64,000 nucleotides of DNA, taken from assembly GCA_043775705.1 (NCBI GenBank), contig JAYVSC010000150.1, positions 1,031-65,030 of the forward strand, written 5' to 3'. The notes below the pieces were generated by a model that saw only the letters and a list, made by a program, of their open reading frames with translations, was not told the DNA's origin and did no database searches. Positions 24,267-35,266 of the stretch are shown piece by piece. The position numbers and the translations under genes were made by a program. Source of the DNA: Spirochaetales bacterium. Lineage in GTDB: Bacteria; Spirochaetota; Spirochaetia; Treponematales; Treponemataceae. Position 1 is the stretch's first letter. Each line of letters opens with the position of its first letter.

Positions 24267-24533
24267 TTATTCGATTACTGCAATAATATCGGTTCCCTTC
24301 AGAATCAAATGGTCTTCCCCATCTATCTTAACCTGGGTTCCTGCGTATTTGTCATACATTACTTTTTGACCCACAGTCACTTTGATCTTTTCTTTGTCAT
24401 CACCGATAGCAATTACGACTGCGGTCTGTGTTTTTTCCTGAGCTGTGTCCGGAATAATGATTCCGCTCGCTGTTTTTGCCTCAAGTTTGTCTGTTTTTAC
24501 CAGAACACGGTCCGCCAATGGTTTTAATTTCAT
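24267..24533 (-). CDS. groES: Co-chaperonin GroES (no adjacent groEL)
   Basis: MKLKPLADRV, TASGIIIPD and YDKYAGT motifs. Confidence 0.97.
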   Translation of the reverse strand: MKLKPLADRVLVKTDKLEAKTASGIIIPDTAQEKTQTAVVIAIGDDKEKIKVTVGQKVMYDKYAGTQVKIDGEDHLILKGTDIIAVIE

Positions 24534-24553: not shown

Positions 24554-24583
24554 AATATACGAAAAAAACCTAGAAGGGGTCAA
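24554..24583 (-). promoter_or_regulatory. sigma70 promoter of groES
   Basis: TTGACC-18-TATATT on the minus strand. Confidence 0.65.
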
Positions 24584-24631
24584 GCGTTTTTGATAGTGTC
24601 TTTTGAATCATATTGATACAGGATTGGGGTG

Positions 24632-24653
24632 ATTTGACATCCCTGTGTCAAAT
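24632..24653. promoter_or_regulatory. Perfect inverted repeat, candidate operator or enhancer
   Basis: ATTTGACA-TCCCTG-TGTCAAAT. Confidence 0.55.
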
Positions 24654-24786
24654 TTACACATTTGTGGGTTTGTAAAAAAGTCAACAAAAAAAGAGAGTGA
24701 TTTTTCGGTAATTTATTGATGTATCAAGTTGTTATACTATAAGGATTTATCAGGAAAAAGTTGCTGTTAACGAAAAACTGAATTGT

Positions 24787-24802
24787 TGGCATGAATGTTG
24801 CT
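24787..24802 (+). promoter_or_regulatory. sigma54 (-24/-12) promoter upstream of the sigma factor gene
   Basis: TGGCATGAATGTTGCT matches TGGCACG-N4-TTGCW at all but one defined position. GG and GC are separated by exactly 10 nt. Confidence 0.75.
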
Positions 24803-24842
24803 TATCATATATATCACTTAATGCAACTAAATAGAGGTTGAT

Positions 24843-25703
24843 ATGGTAAATACATCAGTAAAAAGAGCAACTAACGATGAAAACATTCTCTCCACATATT
24901 TGAAAGAAATCAATACTATTCCACTATTAAGCCGGGAAGATGAATATGCATATGCAGTTTCTGCTTCTGCCGGGGACAAAATGGCGAAAGAAAACCTGGT
25001 AAAATCCAATTTACGGTTTGTGGTTAATGTTGCTAAAAAATACCAAAATCAGGGCTTGCCTTTGATGGACCTGATAAGTGAAGGGAATATTGGCCTCCTG
25101 AATGCCGTGGAACGTTTTGATGCGACGAAAGGATATCACTTCATATCATATGCAGTGTGGTGGATCCGTCAGGCTATCCTCAAGGCTATTTGCGAAAAGT
25201 CACGCATGATCCGCCTTCCCTTGAATCGCGCCAATGAACTGGTTCAGATCGAGAAAGCTCGCAAGGTTATCTCGAACAACAGGACCGAAGAGTCGGAGCT
25301 TAAGGAAATTGCAGGTTTGTTGAACATGAGCCCGGACCATGTCCGCGATATCGTAAATATTTCGCGGGAAATGATATCCCTTGATACACCTCTTTCCGCT
25401 GACCGGGACAGCAACAGCGTGGGCGACTTTCTTGAGGATGATCAGTATGAGCAGCCTGAAGACTATGTGATCGAATCGAATCTCCGCGCTGATATTGATG
25501 ACATTCTGTCATCTCTTACCGGCAAGGAAGCCGAGGTTATTCGTTTCCGTTTCGGCTTGAACGGATATAAAGCGATGTCGCTGAAGGAAATCGGGGACCA
25601 GTTCAATCTGACCAAGGAACGCATCCGCCAGATTGAAAAAAAGGCGATTAAGAGACTGCAGCATCCGACCAGAATGAGCCGTCTTGAAGCCTATGTAGCC
25701 TAA
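24843..25703 (+). CDS. Alternative sigma70-family factor (RpoS-like, lacks region 1.1)
   Basis: NLRFVV, DLISEGNIGL, YAVWWIRQ, SLD and TKERIRQIE motifs. 286 aa. Confidence 0.9.
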   Translation: MVNTSVKRATNDENILSTYLKEINTIPLLSREDEYAYAVSASAGDKMAKENLVKSNLRFVVNVAKKYQNQGLPLMDLISEGNIGLLNAVERFDATKGYHFISYAVWWIRQAILKAICEKSRMIRLPLNRANELVQIEKARKVISNNRTEESELKEIAGLLNMSPDHVRDIVNISREMISLDTPLSADRDSNSVGDFLEDDQYEQPEDYVIESNLRADIDDILSSLTGKEAEVIRFRFGLNGYKAMSLKEIGDQFNLTKERIRQIEKKAIKRLQHPTRMSRLEAYVA

Positions 25704-25731: not shown

Positions 25732-26394
25732 ATGATACATGCAGTAATTTTTGATATGGACGGGCTTCTGTTTGACACAGAAGCCCTTTATTTAAATTCG
25801 GTGAGGTCGGTTTCGGCCTCTTTGGGTTTTACTGTCAGCGATGAACTGGTGCACTCCACCATTGGACGAAATTATACTGATTCCCGCATTTTGATGAAGT
25901 CCGCTCTGGGGCCGGACTTTCCCTACGACGAACTGATGGCTGCATCGAAGGTGTGGATGAAAGAACAGATGGCCGAAAATGGCCCCCCTGAAAAGAGCGG
26001 TATCAGGATACTTTTTGATTTTCTGCAAACCAAAAATATTCCCATAGCCCTCGCCACTTCAACCAGCGAGAAAACGGCGAGGCACATGATCGAGCGTGCG
26101 GGGCTTACACGGTATTTTTCCGCCTTTGCATTCGGTAGCGAGGTGAAAGAAGGAAAGCCCGCACCCGAAATATTTCTGCTTGCCAGGGACCGGCTTGGCG
26201 GTTTTCCTAGCGGTGACTGTGCGGTCTTTGAGGATTCTCCGGCGGGATTGAAGGCGGCCCATGCTGCCGGAATGAAGAGTGTATTCGTTAAGGATTTGAT
26301 TGAACCCGAACAGGCTGTATTGAATCAAGTCTGGAAGCGGATCGACAGCCTCGAAACAGCCGCTTCCGATTCATTTTTCGGTATTATGCAATAA
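25732..26394 (+). CDS. HAD-family phosphatase (beta-PGM-like)
   Basis: FDMDGLL, ALATS, GKPAPEIF and VFEDS motifs. Confidence 0.92.
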   Translation: MIHAVIFDMDGLLFDTEALYLNSVRSVSASLGFTVSDELVHSTIGRNYTDSRILMKSALGPDFPYDELMAASKVWMKEQMAENGPPEKSGIRILFDFLQTKNIPIALATSTSEKTARHMIERAGLTRYFSAFAFGSEVKEGKPAPEIFLLARDRLGGFPSGDCAVFEDSPAGLKAAHAAGMKSVFVKDLIEPEQAVLNQVWKRIDSLETAASDSFFGIMQ

Positions 26395-30665: not shown

Positions 30666-32270
30666 ATGAAATCAAAATTTATTTTTATTACCGGTGGTGT
30701 TGTTTCATCACTGGGCAAGGGTATTACGGCGGCATCCATCGGTCTGCTGCTGAAAAGCCGCGGAATCAAGGTCGTAAACCAGAAATTTGACCCCTATCTC
30801 AATATCGATCCGGGCACAATGAATCCCTACCAGCATGGAGAAGTATTCGTCACCGAGGACGGCGGCGAGACTGACCTGGACCTTGGCCATTATGAGCGTT
30901 TTACCGACGTTCCCCTGCACCGGTTCAACAATACCACGGCGGGAAAGGTGTATCTTGCCATCCTCGACCGCGAGCGCGCGGGCGGCTATGCAGGAAATAC
31001 CGTTCAGGTGATTCCCCATGTAACCGATGAAATCCAGAACCGTATTTTACAAACCGCAAAGGAAACGGGGGCCGACGTCATTATTACCGAAATCGGCGGA
31101 ACCGTCGGTGATATCGAGTCCCTTCCCTTTATCGAGGCAATAAGGCAGATAAAGTACAAGGTCGGCAAGGAAGACTGCGTTTTTGTCCATCTCGGCCTTC
31201 TGCCCTACCTGAAGGAATGCGGGGAACTGAAAACCAAGCCGATGCAGCACAGCGTGAAGGAATTGCTCGGGTTCGGTATCCAGCCCGATATCATCATGTG
31301 CCGCAGCGAAAAGCCCCTGACCAAATCGATCCGCGAAAAACTGGGGCTTTTCTGCAACGTAGCCCAGGACGCGATAGTCGAAAACTTGAGCGCGAAATCA
31401 ATTTATGAAGTTCCCCTCATGCTCGAGCATGAAGGGCTTGGTAAAAGCCTCTGCAAGCTTCTGAACCTTCCCGACACCAAGCCGAACCTCGACGAATGGC
31501 AGGCGATGGTGCAGCGGTACTATCATCCCGAAAAGGAAATCACCATTGCCCTAGTGGGAAAATACGTTGAGCTTCATGACGCGTACCTCAGCGTCGCGGA
31601 AGCCCTTACCGCAGGCGGCATATTCCATAACGCCCGCGTCAAGATCGACTGGATAGACGCGGAGAAAATCACGAGCGCGGAGAAAGCCTCGGAGCTGCTT
31701 TCGAAAGTGCAGGGCATCATCGTCCCCGGCGGCTTCGGCGACCGGGGTACTTCGGGCATGGTCCTGACGGCCCAGTTTGCGCGCGTGCACAATATTCCCT
31801 ACTTCGGGATATGTCTCGGAATGCAGATTGCGGTTATCGAGTTTGCGCGCAATATCCTCGGCATGGCCGACGCCAATTCGTCCGAATTCAATACTTCGAC
31901 GGAATTTCCGGTAATCGACCTGATGCCCGACCAGCAGGGCGTCAAGCTCGGCGGAACTCTGCGCCTCGGCGTGTGCCGCTGCGTGATTACCGAGGGTAGC
32001 CTCGCGGAAAAAGCCTACAAGCTGCATGACATACAGGAGAGGCACCGACACCGGTACGAGTTCAATAACCTGTATCGGGACCAGTTCGAAGCCTCGGCCC
32101 TGAGACTGACGGGAAGGAATCCTGAGCGTAATCTCATCGAGATAGTCGAACTTTCAGATCACCCCTGGTTCGTCGGCGTGCAGTTCCATCCCGAATTCGG
32201 CTCGCGCCCGAACCGCCCGCATCCCCTGTTCAGGGACTTTATCGGTGCCTCGGTCAAGCTGCTTCCGTAG
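30666..32270 (+). CDS. pyrG: CTP synthase
   Basis: [40 protein letters not shown] and QFHPEF motifs. Confidence 0.98.
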
Positions 32271-32287: not shown

Positions 32288-35266
32288 TTACGGAATGCTG
32301 CCCTGCAGCGCATCGAGTTTTACCGTAAGGTAGATGCGGCTGTTTCTGACCAAATCGATTGATTCCACGCCCTGAAAATGATTTACTGCGCCGAACGCGA
32401 TTCTGCTTCGGCCCGCTTCCGCCTCAAACTCGAAACCCGCATACCAGTTCTTATCTATCAGTATATTGAACATAGTTCCGTTCCTAGGTGTCGCCGCCCC
32501 TGCGGCGGCGGTTCCAGACGAAATCAGTTTTTCCATATAGAAACGGCTGTTTATTCCCTTTGGAAGGACGAGGGCGGCCTGCACAATCGTTCTTCCCGGA
32601 TACAGGCAGTCAAGGCTTTCGCCCTTTGGATTTACGAGGGTGATTGGGAGCGGGGCAGCGGGCGGCAGATCAAACCAGCGCGAACGTATGCTGAGCTCTC
32701 CCTGCAAGTCCTTTGTTCCCGCGGCGGCCGCCGCGTTGACTTCCGCCGAGAGAAAGAGGGAAGTCGATATCGAAGGGAAGCGCGATACGAGCAGAGTCGG
32801 GGTCAGCTTGAATTTTAAAGCGGCATTAGTCCCCCTCATTTTACTTCGGTAAAGATCCAGACCGGCACTTCCCGTTATGCCCGTTTTCCAGGGGATTGCA
32901 TCCGAAGCCTTGAAGACTGTCAGGGCCGACCGTTCGGCGTTTGCCCGGACTCCCGTCACGAGGGAGAAGTCAGTGAGGTCCCGGTAAAAAGAGCGGCGAT
33001 AAAACGGGCACGAAAAAGAGGCGAGCCCCGATGACGATTCCCTGAAGATTTCCGCACGTGAATCGAGCGAGAGCTGCCTCTCGCCGTAGAGCATCAGTGT
33101 GCCTGTCTGAACCGGGAAGGAAGCGAATACGAACGCGTCGGCCTGATTTATTTCCGGATACCACTTTCCCCCGAGGGCGAGCATATTTCCCTGCGAACCG
33201 TTTTGGAGCGGGTAACCTTCAAAGATTGCGAAGGCTCCGGCTCCGAAGGCGTGCTCATTATCTCTCAGGGCAAGGTATCCGATTGACGGCATCCACAACG
33301 AAGGACGGGGAATATTGTAAAAGTTTTTTTCGTCCAGGAGTATGGGCTGAGTTGTGTCCATCCGTATTCCTTCGGTTCTCGGAAGCAGGATTTTATCCTT
33401 TTTTTTCTTTTCGTCTTTTTCTCCGCTCGGGTAGGGGGTGAAAAGGGGATAATCCGAGGCAAGGCCGCCAATGTTATATACGGCACCGGGACTCGACGGG
33501 CCAGGATAGTCAGGAATGGCACCCCATTCAGAGTCTGGTTTCATTTTCAGCACATAGCCGTTGCCGGAATAGGACGCATAGCAAATACCCTGCGCGGTTT
33601 TTTCCGCCCAGAAGGCGCCGACGGGATCGGACACAACCGGAGCCTTTTTGCCGTCACGGTATTCCCATACCTCAAGCCTGCCCCGCTCATTCGACGAAAA
33701 CAAAATGCTGCCCTCGGCGGTCCACACCGGATAGGCGATGTCGATGAGAGGTCCGTCCGCATTCACCAGGGCCTTGACCGCGGAGTCCGGAACGGGATAG
33801 GCGAATTCGTATGCCGGCATGGGCGCCGACGCAAGGATGGCCCGTTTCCCGTTAAGGATCAGAAATGATATTTCTTTTCCGTCAGGGGACAGGGCGGGCT
33901 GAATGTAGCTTTGCTCGTGCGACTCGAGAAGAATGCGTCTCTCTCCCGTCCTGATGTCGACTTTGACCAGGCGGTACCGGGTGTCAGAAAGCTCGACGGC
34001 GACGAGGGTATTTCCCGATCTGCTCAAGGCAGGCTGGAAAAGACTGCTTCCGCGCGTGAGCTGAACGAGACCGCTTTTTTCGCTCCATGAGTACAGATCC
34101 GTTTCCGCACTCGAGCCGGGCATGAGGTCTCTCCGCGCGCTGACCAGGGAGGCAATCACCCTTCCGTTTTCGCTTACGGTAAGGGAGAGCTCGTCCGCAA
34201 AGACGCCTTCGAAGAGAATTTTTTCTTCCCCGGTCGCGGGATCGAGACGGACTGCCGCGCGGTCCTTCCCCTTGATGTCGCGCAAAGTAAAGATGCCGTC
34301 GGAAGCTATAAAGGCCGGCCGGTAATAGTCGGAATTTAATGCTCTCGGGGTAATTGTTTTTCCCTCGGGGATTTTTCGTTCTTCTGCGTATTTTTTGGCC
34401 AGCGACACGCGTACGTCCTGGAAAATTTCTTCAACCGTCATTCCCGTGACGAGCCTGACCGCTTCCCCGTAATCCCTGCCGGCCGTCCGGTTCCGCTCGA
34501 TATCTGCAACGGCGGTTTTCCCCCAGCGATCCGAGATGCTCTGAATCATGAGGTAGCCCATGACGTATATTTGGCCGCGGGGCGGCATCTGCTCAAGCCC
34601 TATCTCATCGAAATGGAGAAAGGAGTTCTCGAGCGCGGGCGCTTTATAGTAGAGCTCGAAAAAGGGACTCCGCCCGCGCCCTCCGTCGGTCAAGGCGGTT
34701 TCAAGGTACGTGGTCAGTCCTTCCAGCGCCCATCCCGGAATTGCGGAGAAATTGACGATGTTCCAGAAAGGACCGAAAATATCCGAAACGGTGTGCTTTT
34801 TCCCCTCAAAGGAAAAATTGGCGATATGGGTCAGTTCATGGGTAAAGAACAGGGTGGACCAGTCTTCCCGGTAGCCGATGTCGGGCGAGAGGGGCGGGGT
34901 GGTAAAAAAGCCCATATACATGCTGAGCCCCTCGGCATAGGCATTCACCATGTCGGTTCTGCCGGTGACGAGCACGTCGGTCATTTCGGGCGGGGTGCTG
35001 TATATTTCGGAGAGTTTGTTCCACGCGGGGTCTGCCGCCGCGGCGAAGGCAGCGGCCTGAGCCTTTGAGGCGTCTTCATAGATAAACCTGAAGTGATTGG
35101 TCGAGGCCTGCTTCCATCCCCTGAATGGAGTTGTTTCCTCGGCTTGGAGCAAAGAGGGGCAGATGAGGGAAGCGCACAGCAGCGATACGCACAGCAGCGA
35201 AGCGTTCATGAGGGAGGCACTTACACGCGGCGCGTGAACACGATATTTATCCGATTGAGTTTTCAT
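32288..35266 (-). CDS. Large exported protein: gluzincin-like domain, TolB-like propeller and beta-rich C-terminus (start uncertain)
   Basis: HELTH...ALEGLT motif, PALSRSG and PALSPDG blades, and a signal peptide ending LLQA. Confidence 0.65.
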   Translation of the reverse strand: MKTQSDKYRVHAPRVSASLMNASLLCVSLLCASLICPSLLQAEETTPFRGWKQASTNHFRFIYEDASKAQAAAFAAAADPAWNKLSEIYSTPPEMTDVLVTGRTDMVNAYAEGLSMYMGFFTTPPLSPDIGYREDWSTLFFTHELTHIANFSFEGKKHTVSDIFGPFWNIVNFSAIPGWALEGLTTYLETALTDGGRGRSPFFELYYKAPALENSFLHFDEIGLEQMPPRGQIYVMGYLMIQSISDRWGKTAVADIERNRTAGRDYGEAVRLVTGMTVEEIFQDVRVSLAKKYAEERKIPEGKTITPRALNSDYYRPAFIASDGIFTLRDIKGKDRAAVRLDPATGEEKILFEGVFADELSLTVSENGRVIASLVSARRDLMPGSSAETDLYSWSEKSGLVQLTRGSSLFQPALSRSGNTLVAVELSDTRYRLVKVDIRTGERRILLESHEQSYIQPALSPDGKEISFLILNGKRAILASAPMPAYEFAYPVPDSAVKALVNADGPLIDIAYPVWTAEGSILFSSNERGRLEVWEYRDGKKAPVVSDPVGAFWAEKTAQGICYASYSGNGYVLKMKPDSEWGAIPDYPGPSSPGAVYNIGGLASDYPLFTPYPSGEKDEKKKKDKILLPRTEGIRMDTTQPILLDEKNFYNIPRPSLWMPSIGYLALRDNEHAFGAGAFAIFEGYPLQNGSQGNMLALGGKWYPEINQADAFVFASFPVQTGTLMLYGERQLSLDSRAEIFRESSSGLASFSCPFYRRSFYRDLTDFSLVTGVRANAERSALTVFKASDAIPWKTGITGSAGLDLYRSKMRGTNAALKFKLTPTLLVSRFPSISTSLFLSAEVNAAAAAGTKDLQGELSIRSRWFDLPPAAPLPITLVNPKGESLDCLYPGRTIVQAALVLPKGINSRFYMEKLISSGTAAAGAATPRNGTMFNILIDKNWYAGFEFEAEAGRSRIAFGAVNHFQGVESIDLVRNSRIYLTVKLDALQGSIP
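35141..35215 (-). repeat. Five degenerate 15-bp tandem units in the signal peptide
   Basis: SLMNA-SLLCV-SLLCA-SLICP-SLLQA. Units 2 and 3 are identical at 13 of 15 nt. Confidence 0.75.

Follow-up and report, generated by a model that had tools for sequence, protein, structure and literature searches.

In most accounts the RpoN-RpoS switch of the Lyme agent is treated as peculiar to Borrelia, and the question raised by the locus described here is whether a Treponema-like spirochaete places a sigma factor gene under sigma-54 control through the same cascade. The locus lies in a 64,000-nt stretch (hereafter the window) of contig JAYVSC010000150.1 from a Spirochaetales bacterium of the family Treponemataceae (assembly GCA_043775705.1), in which a sigma-54 -24/-12 element, TGGCATGAATGTTGCT, stands upstream of a gene for a short sigma70-family protein. 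We read positions 24604-24842 of the window as a classical enhancer-dependent sigma-54 promoter region and the gene behind it as a paralogue of Borrelia RpoS, and give this reading a probability of roughly 0.8. The data indicate that the RpoN-RpoS system of Borrelia represents one branch that has survived from an old spirochaete circuit with two sigma-54-driven alternative sigma factors.

A conserved sigma-54 promoter element upstream of a short sigma factor gene

The 3' end of TGGCATGAATGTTGCT is separated by 40 nt from the ATG of the sigma gene at 24843. The element is preceded by a T (giving TTGGCATG), its GG (24788-89) and GC (24800-01) doublets are 10 nt apart, and it fits 11 of the 12 positions of TGGCACG-N4-TTGCW. 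Coordinates and Pfam matches agree with the first-pass annotation, which had pointed to a near-perfect -24/-12 element about 40 nt before a 286-amino-acid (aa) sigma70-family gene without region 1.1. The pattern TGGCAY-N5-TTGCW has a single exact match in the 64-kb window, namely this element; when one mismatch is allowed, the window holds three matches against 3.1 expected from shuffled sequence, so that the motif is not significant in this one sequence alone. Across the whole genome (3.79 Mb in 231 contigs), 16 sites fit at least 11 of the 12 positions of TGGCACG-N4-TTGCW.

Conservation was assessed upstream of orthologues of the window gene, a group that we call family A. Such orthologues were present at 57-87% identity in all 60 relatives searched, the named ones being uncultured Treponemataceae and Treponematales metagenome-assembled genomes together with Treponema species. 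A sample of 251 genomes from the phylum contained them in 150 cases. The element was found on the sense strand within 200 nt upstream at 102 of 108 orthologous loci and on the antisense strand at 2 of 108, with a background elsewhere in these loci of 0.005 per 200 nt. Positions that the search pattern left free (the T before TGG, the G after CAY and the T before TGC) match the sigma-54 consensus, and the spacer of four bases shows no such constraint. The stricter pattern TTGGCAYG-N4-TTGCW occurred at all 30 oriented loci, 50-115 nt upstream of the aligned start, and at 73 of 80 named loci, including those of T. lecithinolyticum, Treponema sp. OMZ 840, T. brennaborense, Marispirochaeta, Alkalispirochaeta and Salinispira. 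Other families of Spirochaetota carried the element upstream of 15 of 20 family-A orthologues, and none of ten controls (RpoD, FliA and other sigma genes) had one.

The element also precedes the family-A orthologue in a T. pallidum-like genome and in two T. denticola-like genomes. The T. pallidum-like orthologue (L129, G154, 1104663-1105532) keeps ATGGCATGATATTTGCT and a divergent groES; the T. pallidum sigma gene adjoining groES is the one that we take to be TP1012. The orthologue of T. denticola ATCC 35405 has TTGGCATAGTTTTTGCT and, at -187, the dyad described below. Sigma-54 dependence is therefore predicted for the T. pallidum-like gene, the one alternative sigma factor of group-2-like type that was found in that genome, and for the T. 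denticola-like orthologue. Since orthologues well outside Borrelia share the upstream element, a sigma-54-to-sigma cascade is old and widespread in spirochaetes; the motif upstream of orthologues, which the first-pass annotation had proposed examining, bears out its suggestion that the cascade is older or wider than Borrelia. On the sequence evidence, TGGCATGAATGTTGCT very likely works as an enhancer-dependent sigma-54 promoter for the sigma gene, with a predicted transcription start at about 24813.

The sigma factor is probably a paralogue of Borrelia RpoS

The window protein has Pfam matches to sigma70 region 1.2 (residues 16-46) and to regions 2, 3 and 4, and no Pfam match to region 1.1; it starts at region 1.2 and does not have the make-up of a primary (group 1) sigma factor of the RpoD type. 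It scored under every cut-off of the curated RpoD, RpoS and RpoH models (RpoS TIGR02394, 278.7 bits against 378.7; RpoS NF004207, 267.8 against 394; RpoD, 300.8 against 555 and, for the C-terminal model, 264.4 against 354) and far under those of RpoH and FliA. Read from the sequence, the position of sigma-S K173 (E458 of sigma70) is Asn. Region 4.2 has K for R584, a conservative change, and keeps E585, R586 and R588; since all but one of the -35-reading residues are thus retained, the target promoters of family A are probably sigma70-like.

Besides this gene, the genome carries RpoD on contig C133 (591-aa open frame), a third sigma factor (343-aa open frame), FliA and one further short sigma gene. 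A second group of short sigma factors, family B, is represented by a gene of about 275 aa that is split between the ends of two contigs (C37:3555-3810 and C92:1-603), lacks about one base at the junction and has TTGGCATGTTTCTTGCT 42 nt upstream. Family B was present in 58 of 61 relatives, and its sigma-54 element at 26 of 29 loci in the genus and, in six families of the order, at 20 of 20 loci.

To place both families, 65 sigma factors were compared in a maximum-likelihood tree, with the approximately unbiased (AU) test and with BLAST best hits within a 19-protein panel. Family A formed a clade (support 95/98) separate from RpoD and from Borrelia RpoS, and Borrelia RpoS, family B and a divergent T. 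denticola sigma factor were joined at 94/88. Forcing Borrelia RpoS together with family A cost 29.7 log-likelihood units (AU test, p = 0.034), against p = 0.55 for its grouping with family B. Borrelia RpoS and family B were reciprocal best hits (41% identity, 192-195 bits), with the window protein at 31% and 132 bits; the latter is neither a reciprocal best hit of the Borrelia-type RpoS group nor in a common clade with it. Borrelia-like genomes contained no family-A match at E ≤ 1e-66 and none better than RpoD, and their RpoS proteins were 30-32% identical to the window protein. The first-pass annotation had taken the RpoS-like gene for the counterpart of Borrelia RpoS; the tree, the AU test and the reciprocal BLAST pair Borrelia RpoS with family B instead.

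Were the window gene the true orthologue of Borrelia RpoS, and the locus the Treponema version of the Rrp2-RpoN-RpoS cascade, this would account for the similar size of the two proteins, for the region 1.1 missing in both, for the Rrp2 orthologue in the window genome and for a promoter of the same type as that of Borrelia rpoS, which is TTGGCACAGTTTTTGCA (PMC1976401) and recurs as TTGGCAYnnTTTTTGCn in four Borrelia-like genomes; the long branch of Borrelia RpoS could, moreover, be misplaced. We consider this unlikely, because the well-supported family-A clade excludes Borrelia RpoS, joining the two is costly, the best hits within the panel lie with family B and Borrelia-like genomes show no family-A match at the threshold above. 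The sigma-54 promoter is common to both paralogues and therefore does not discriminate membership of the Borrelia-type RpoS group. Judged by these comparisons, the window gene is likely a paralogue and not an orthologue of Borrelia RpoS, and the family-B gene on C37/C92 is the best candidate orthologue.

Since the sigma-54 element is conserved in families A and B alike, sigma-54 drives two sigma factor genes in this lineage, and an ancestral spirochaete circuit would have had two sigma outputs. The most plausible origin of the known Borrelia rpoS promoter is inheritance along with branch B; of the two branches, Borrelia would have retained B alone, and T. pallidum seems to retain A alone.

Family-B promoters (C37:3380-3550; L150-L175) have upstream blocks of their own, AAAGTATACAC and a TGTATA-N6-TATACA-like dyad. 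The half-site of the latter resembles that of the family-A dyad described below, and the spacing differs. Gene order was tried as a further test of the identity of family B with Borrelia RpoS and set aside: a FlgJ-like gene lies upstream in Borrelia-like genomes and is not seen in the 400 nt examined at family-B loci. Two T. denticola-like genomes (G245 and G075; loci L141 and L142) contain a third short sigma gene, of 276-287 aa, which sits on a very long branch beside family B and has no sigma-54 element upstream.

Tandem dyads form a candidate enhancer

Two 17-bp dyads with the consensus TGTGTCA-N3-TGACACA lie upstream of the -24/-12 element (Table 1), exactly 40 bp apart in most relatives. 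A position weight matrix trained on the genus and run on 66 held-out loci, with 66 coding sequences as controls, found a site at 61 of the held-out loci against 1 of the controls, and a pair 39-41 bp apart at 32 of the 66. The pair in the window is the sole tandem dyad pair in the whole genome. Dyad symmetry, tandem arrangement, a position about 80-250 bp upstream of the -24 element and conservation together with that element are the features of upstream activating sequences (UAS) of the NtrC class, and the two dyads are very probably such an enhancer of the sigma-54 promoter, with TGAATCATATTGATACA and TGTGTCAAATTTACACA as candidate sites. No 7-N3-7 dyad was found upstream of family B or of Borrelia rpoS.

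A perfect TTGACA-N6-TGTCAA palindrome at 24632-24653 is peculiar to the window genome. It was considered as an enhancer and rejected, its left arm being unconserved and its right arm alone overlapping the dyad at 24644-24660.

The same elements accompany an hsp20 gene

Few of the 16 genomic sites are plausible intergenic promoters; two of these precede the two sigma genes, and another precedes a gene of the hsp20 family (C145:2602-3141, minus strand). This gene lies behind TGGCATGTTTTTTGCT, with a dyad, TGTTTCCTTTTGACACA, 160 bp upstream, and an hsp20 orthologue with both the sigma-54 element and the dyad was found in 28 of 28 relatives. The presence of the same dyad and element at hsp20 and at the family-A gene argues that one activator probably controls both. 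Taken with the frequent neighbourhood of groES, this co-occurrence suggests that the module is a stress or proteostasis branch, and the connection with two chaperone genes, hsp20 and the neighbouring groES, suggests a role in proteotoxic stress.

Near-consensus sigma-54 elements also occur at C166:7384, C215:705, C141:15498, C52:22317 and C115:9196. The genes behind these five sites encode a 623-aa lipoprotein-like protein, a 305-aa protein without a Pfam match, a fragment of an AI-2E-family transporter and two large exported repeat proteins, and the family-A dyad was absent from all five sites.

Alternative readings of the promoter region

An AT-rich block, TCAAGTTGTTATACTATAAGGATTTA, sits between the dyads and the -24 element, a usual location for DNA-bending sites, and contains TGTTATACT at 24730-24738. 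The first-pass annotation had noted this TGn-TATACT element, which is present at that position, and had proposed dual promoters. One alternative is that the sigma gene is transcribed mainly from a sigma70-type promoter in this block, with the sigma-54 site acting as a conditional boost or a roadblock. In favour of this, TGTTATACT makes a reasonable extended -10 element within a partly conserved block, and Borrelia rpoS has been reported to show additional RpoD-dependent transcription. The TG is unconserved, however, the would-be -35 region is variable and holds no -35 hexamer, and no plus-strand sigma70-type promoter was called, which speaks against dual promoters and makes a mainly sigma70-driven gene improbable. 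A similar AT-rich block occupies the same relative place in family-B promoters and fits a structural role; we regard the block at 24724-24749 as a candidate DNA-bending site.

The dyads might instead be operators of an ordinary sigma70-type regulator, either of the divergent groES or of a general stress repressor. They do occupy the interval between groES and the sigma gene, with the distal one about 20 bp beyond the -35 hexamer of groES; TGTGT-type dyads resemble CRP/FNR-class sites, and T. pallidum has the sigma-54 element without a dyad. If the dyads served groES they should follow it, but they were found at 23 of 25 loci with groES adjacent, at 15 of 16 with groES 450-1500 nt off and at 23 of 25 with no groES within 1.5 kb. 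Being equally frequent in all three situations, they belong to the sigma-54 promoter and not to groES. Across the phylum, dyad presence or absence tracks the -24/-12 element, loci without the element also being without the dyad; the dyads accompany the hsp20 sigma-54 promoter in all 28 genomes; and the 7-N3-7 build, the 40-bp tandem spacing and the distance of 100-250 bp from the -24 element are traits of NtrC-class enhancers. An operator function is accordingly hard to credit. A functionless chance match, which would suit the finding that one-mismatch matches in the window are as many as in shuffled sequence, is ruled out by the sense-strand conservation reported above, with flanks that follow the consensus and a spacer that varies.

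RpoN and candidate activators

The first-pass annotation had suggested looking for rpoN and enhancer-binding proteins in the genome, and both are there. An intact RpoN is encoded at C196:9899-11326 (345 bits against a cut-off of 277), with AID, CBD and DBD domains, and there are six strong matches to the sigma-54 activation domain (PF00158), the total being at least six. A C-terminal HTH_8 domain was present in all four full-length activators tested. The protein encoded on C213 combines receiver, AAA+ and HTH_8 domains, its gene lies directly behind a histidine-kinase gene, and it falls into an Rrp2 clade (support 96-98) with T. pallidum and T. denticola proteins and Borrelia Rrp2.

In each of two small genomes, G194 and G284, the sole activator is of the Rrp2 type, and neither genome has family B; G194 has family A with its promoter and two dyads. 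In G072 (C63:31300-33954; L282/L192), a gene of the Rrp2 clade ends at 32823 and is followed directly by the promoter at 32996 and then by the family-A sigma gene; the stop codon of the activator gene is straddled by two dyads (32814 and 32854). On the strength of the Rrp2 clade, of the sole activators of G194 and G284 and of the gene adjacency in G072, the Hk2/Rrp2-type pair on C213 is on balance our preferred candidate for the activator. A GAF-type activator (C76) was considered as a general dyad binder and discarded, as it is absent (E ≤ 1e-95) from ten genomes that have the promoter and dyads.

A third dyad in G072, at 31394 near the 5' end of the Rrp2-clade gene, hints at autoregulation. 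The T. pallidum-like genome G154 has two activators, one of the Rrp2 type and one GAF-like, and returned no family-B match.

Proposed mechanism

From the motifs with their conservation and co-occurrence, from the rpoN and activator genes and from the phylogeny, we infer a course of events that extends from binding, looping and start site to the choice of activator, the signal and the regulon of the sigma factor. RpoN-RNA polymerase would form a closed complex on TTGGCATG-N4-TTGCT (24786-24802), and an NtrC-class activator with receiver, AAA+ and Fis-type helix-turn-helix (HTH) domains would bind the two dyads. The DNA would loop, probably aided by the AT-rich block, ATP hydrolysis by the activator would open the complex, and transcription would start at about 24813. 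The resulting leader of about 30 nt would carry AGAGG and the ATG of the 286-aa sigma factor, which would then redirect core polymerase to its own promoters.

Several points weigh against this reading of the region and of the gene. The placement of Borrelia RpoS rests on long branches, its node is unstarred and the AU p value is only 0.034, so that paralogy is probable and not certain, and the reciprocal BLAST used a small panel rather than whole proteomes. The T. pallidum-like locus has no dyad (best score 3.1) despite its -24/-12 element, and the enhancer is therefore not obligatory everywhere. A weak sigma70-type start may arise from the AT-rich block. The search for RpoN covered the window genome only. 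In Borrelia, Rrp2 showed no binding to the DNA around rpoS (PMC1976401), so Rrp2-type proteins are only putative DNA binders. Finally, the upstream blocks of family B differ and hold no 7-N3-7 dyad, and a single activator for both branches is thus conjectural.

A wider scheme, which we offer as a tentative one and think less likely than not to hold in full, would make an Hk2/Rrp2-type activator the ancestral master of a two-branched sigma-54 circuit, with TGTGTCA-N3-TGACACA as its site. Family A would be a stand-in for the heat-shock factor sigma-32, which is missing in spirochaetes, hsp20 and family A would be controlled through the tandem enhancer, and family B would form the second branch; Borrelia would have lost family A and the enhancer, and T. 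pallidum family B and the enhancer, with its one remaining alternative sigma factor still under sigma-54. A loss of branch A together with the enhancer in Borrelia, if true, would explain why Rrp2 has an HTH domain without a known binding site. No binding site has been found in Borrelia, and the dyad is a concrete candidate DNA site for Rrp2-type activators.

Relation to known systems

The circuit resembles the Hk2-Rrp2-RpoN-RpoS cascade of Borrelia burgdorferi in having a sigma-54 promoter of the same consensus before a short sigma70-family gene without region 1.1, and in having RpoN and Hk2-Rrp2 orthologues, the activator gene following immediately on the kinase gene. It differs in that the locus has a conserved tandem enhancer, whereas Rrp2 acts on Borrelia rpoS without one (PMC1976401), and a groES neighbour in place of the FlgJ-like gene of Borrelia-like genomes (flgI-flgJ in PMC1976401). 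It differs also in that the output here is family A, the RpoS-type gene lying on C37/C92, and that the enhancer serves hsp20 as well. The Borrelia-style RpoN-to-RpoS cascade proposed by the first-pass annotation therefore stands for the sigma-54 promoter, RpoN and the activators, but not for the sigma factor, which is a different paralogue, nor for the mode of control, since a tandem enhancer is present.

The promoter region is also like that of enterobacterial glnAp2 under NtrC, which has tandem 17-bp 7-N3-7 dyads 100-200 bp upstream of a -24/-12 element, an AT-rich element between enhancer and promoter and an activator with receiver, AAA+ and Fis-type HTH domains. The half-site is TGTGTCA here and TGCACCA there, and the targets here are a sigma factor gene and hsp20 and not nitrogen assimilation. 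Sigma-54 likewise controls sigma70-family genes in enterobacterial rpoH and in fliA of the Vibrio and Legionella type, and an hsp20-family gene, E. coli ibpB, shares such control. The sigma factors of the rpoH and fliA systems are not orthologous to the window protein, and in the rpoH, ibpB and fliA systems the sigma-54 promoter is one of several and minor, whereas here it is the sole conserved promoter signal.

Sigma-S in Borrelia and Sigma-32 in enterobacteria have been described as indirect outputs of sigma-54 (Francke et al. 2011; PMC3162934). Sigma-54 control of sigma genes is already known or predicted elsewhere; the output sigma factor, the enhancer and hsp20 are what differ here. Full-text searches found no literature on a sigma-54 promoter for a sigma factor gene in Treponema or in other spirochaetes apart from Borrelia, although older in-silico predictions may exist. 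Work by Studholme and Buck from 2000 is possibly relevant here.

Neighbouring genes

Coordinates of the locus are collected in Table 1. The divergent groES serves as a locus marker and lies outside the sigma-54 unit; it was found upstream of the family-A gene at 74 of 103 loci. No CIRCE/HrcA operator was seen in the intergenic sequence near it.

Table 1. Positions of the sigma gene, its predicted control elements and its neighbours in the window.
Feature	Position	Strand	Basis and remarks
groES, divergent neighbour	24267..24533	-	NCBIfam, Pfam
groES sigma70-type promoter, TTGACC-18-TATATT	24554..24583	-	Promoter scan; near-consensus; both hexamers conserved in genus
Distal dyad (candidate UAS 1), TGAATCATATTGATACA, 7-N3-7	24604..24620	.	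183 bp upstream of GG; genus alignment
Proximal dyad (candidate UAS 2), TGTGTCAAATTTACACA	24644..24660	.	143 bp upstream of GG; genus alignment
AT-rich block, TCAAGTTGTTATACTATAAGGATTTA, candidate IHF/HU-type bending site	24724..24749	.	Partly conserved columns, genus alignment
Sigma-54 -24/-12 element, TGGCATGAATGTTGCT	24787..24802	+	Sequence; only exact window match; conservation upstream of orthologues
Ribosome-binding site AGAGG, 5 nt before ATG	24833..24837	+	Sequence; GGAGG kept there in relatives
Family-A sigma factor gene, 286 aa, regions 1.2, 2, 3, 4	24843..25703	+	Pfam, NCBIfam
HAD-family phosphatase gene, 29 nt after sigma gene	25732..26394	+	Pfam HAD_2

The HAD phosphatase gene is the downstream neighbour at 31 of 103 family-A loci. 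No terminator was called in the gap between it and the sigma gene, and the two are possibly co-transcribed. Also downstream, 800 bp on in the window, is glnA, for which the motif scan of the window showed no sigma-54 element. A terminator-like hairpin with a 10-bp stem followed by a T-rich tail (25762-25786) lies within the first 55 nt of the HAD open reading frame; it lies 60 nt past the stop codon of the sigma gene and could end or attenuate the sigma transcript.

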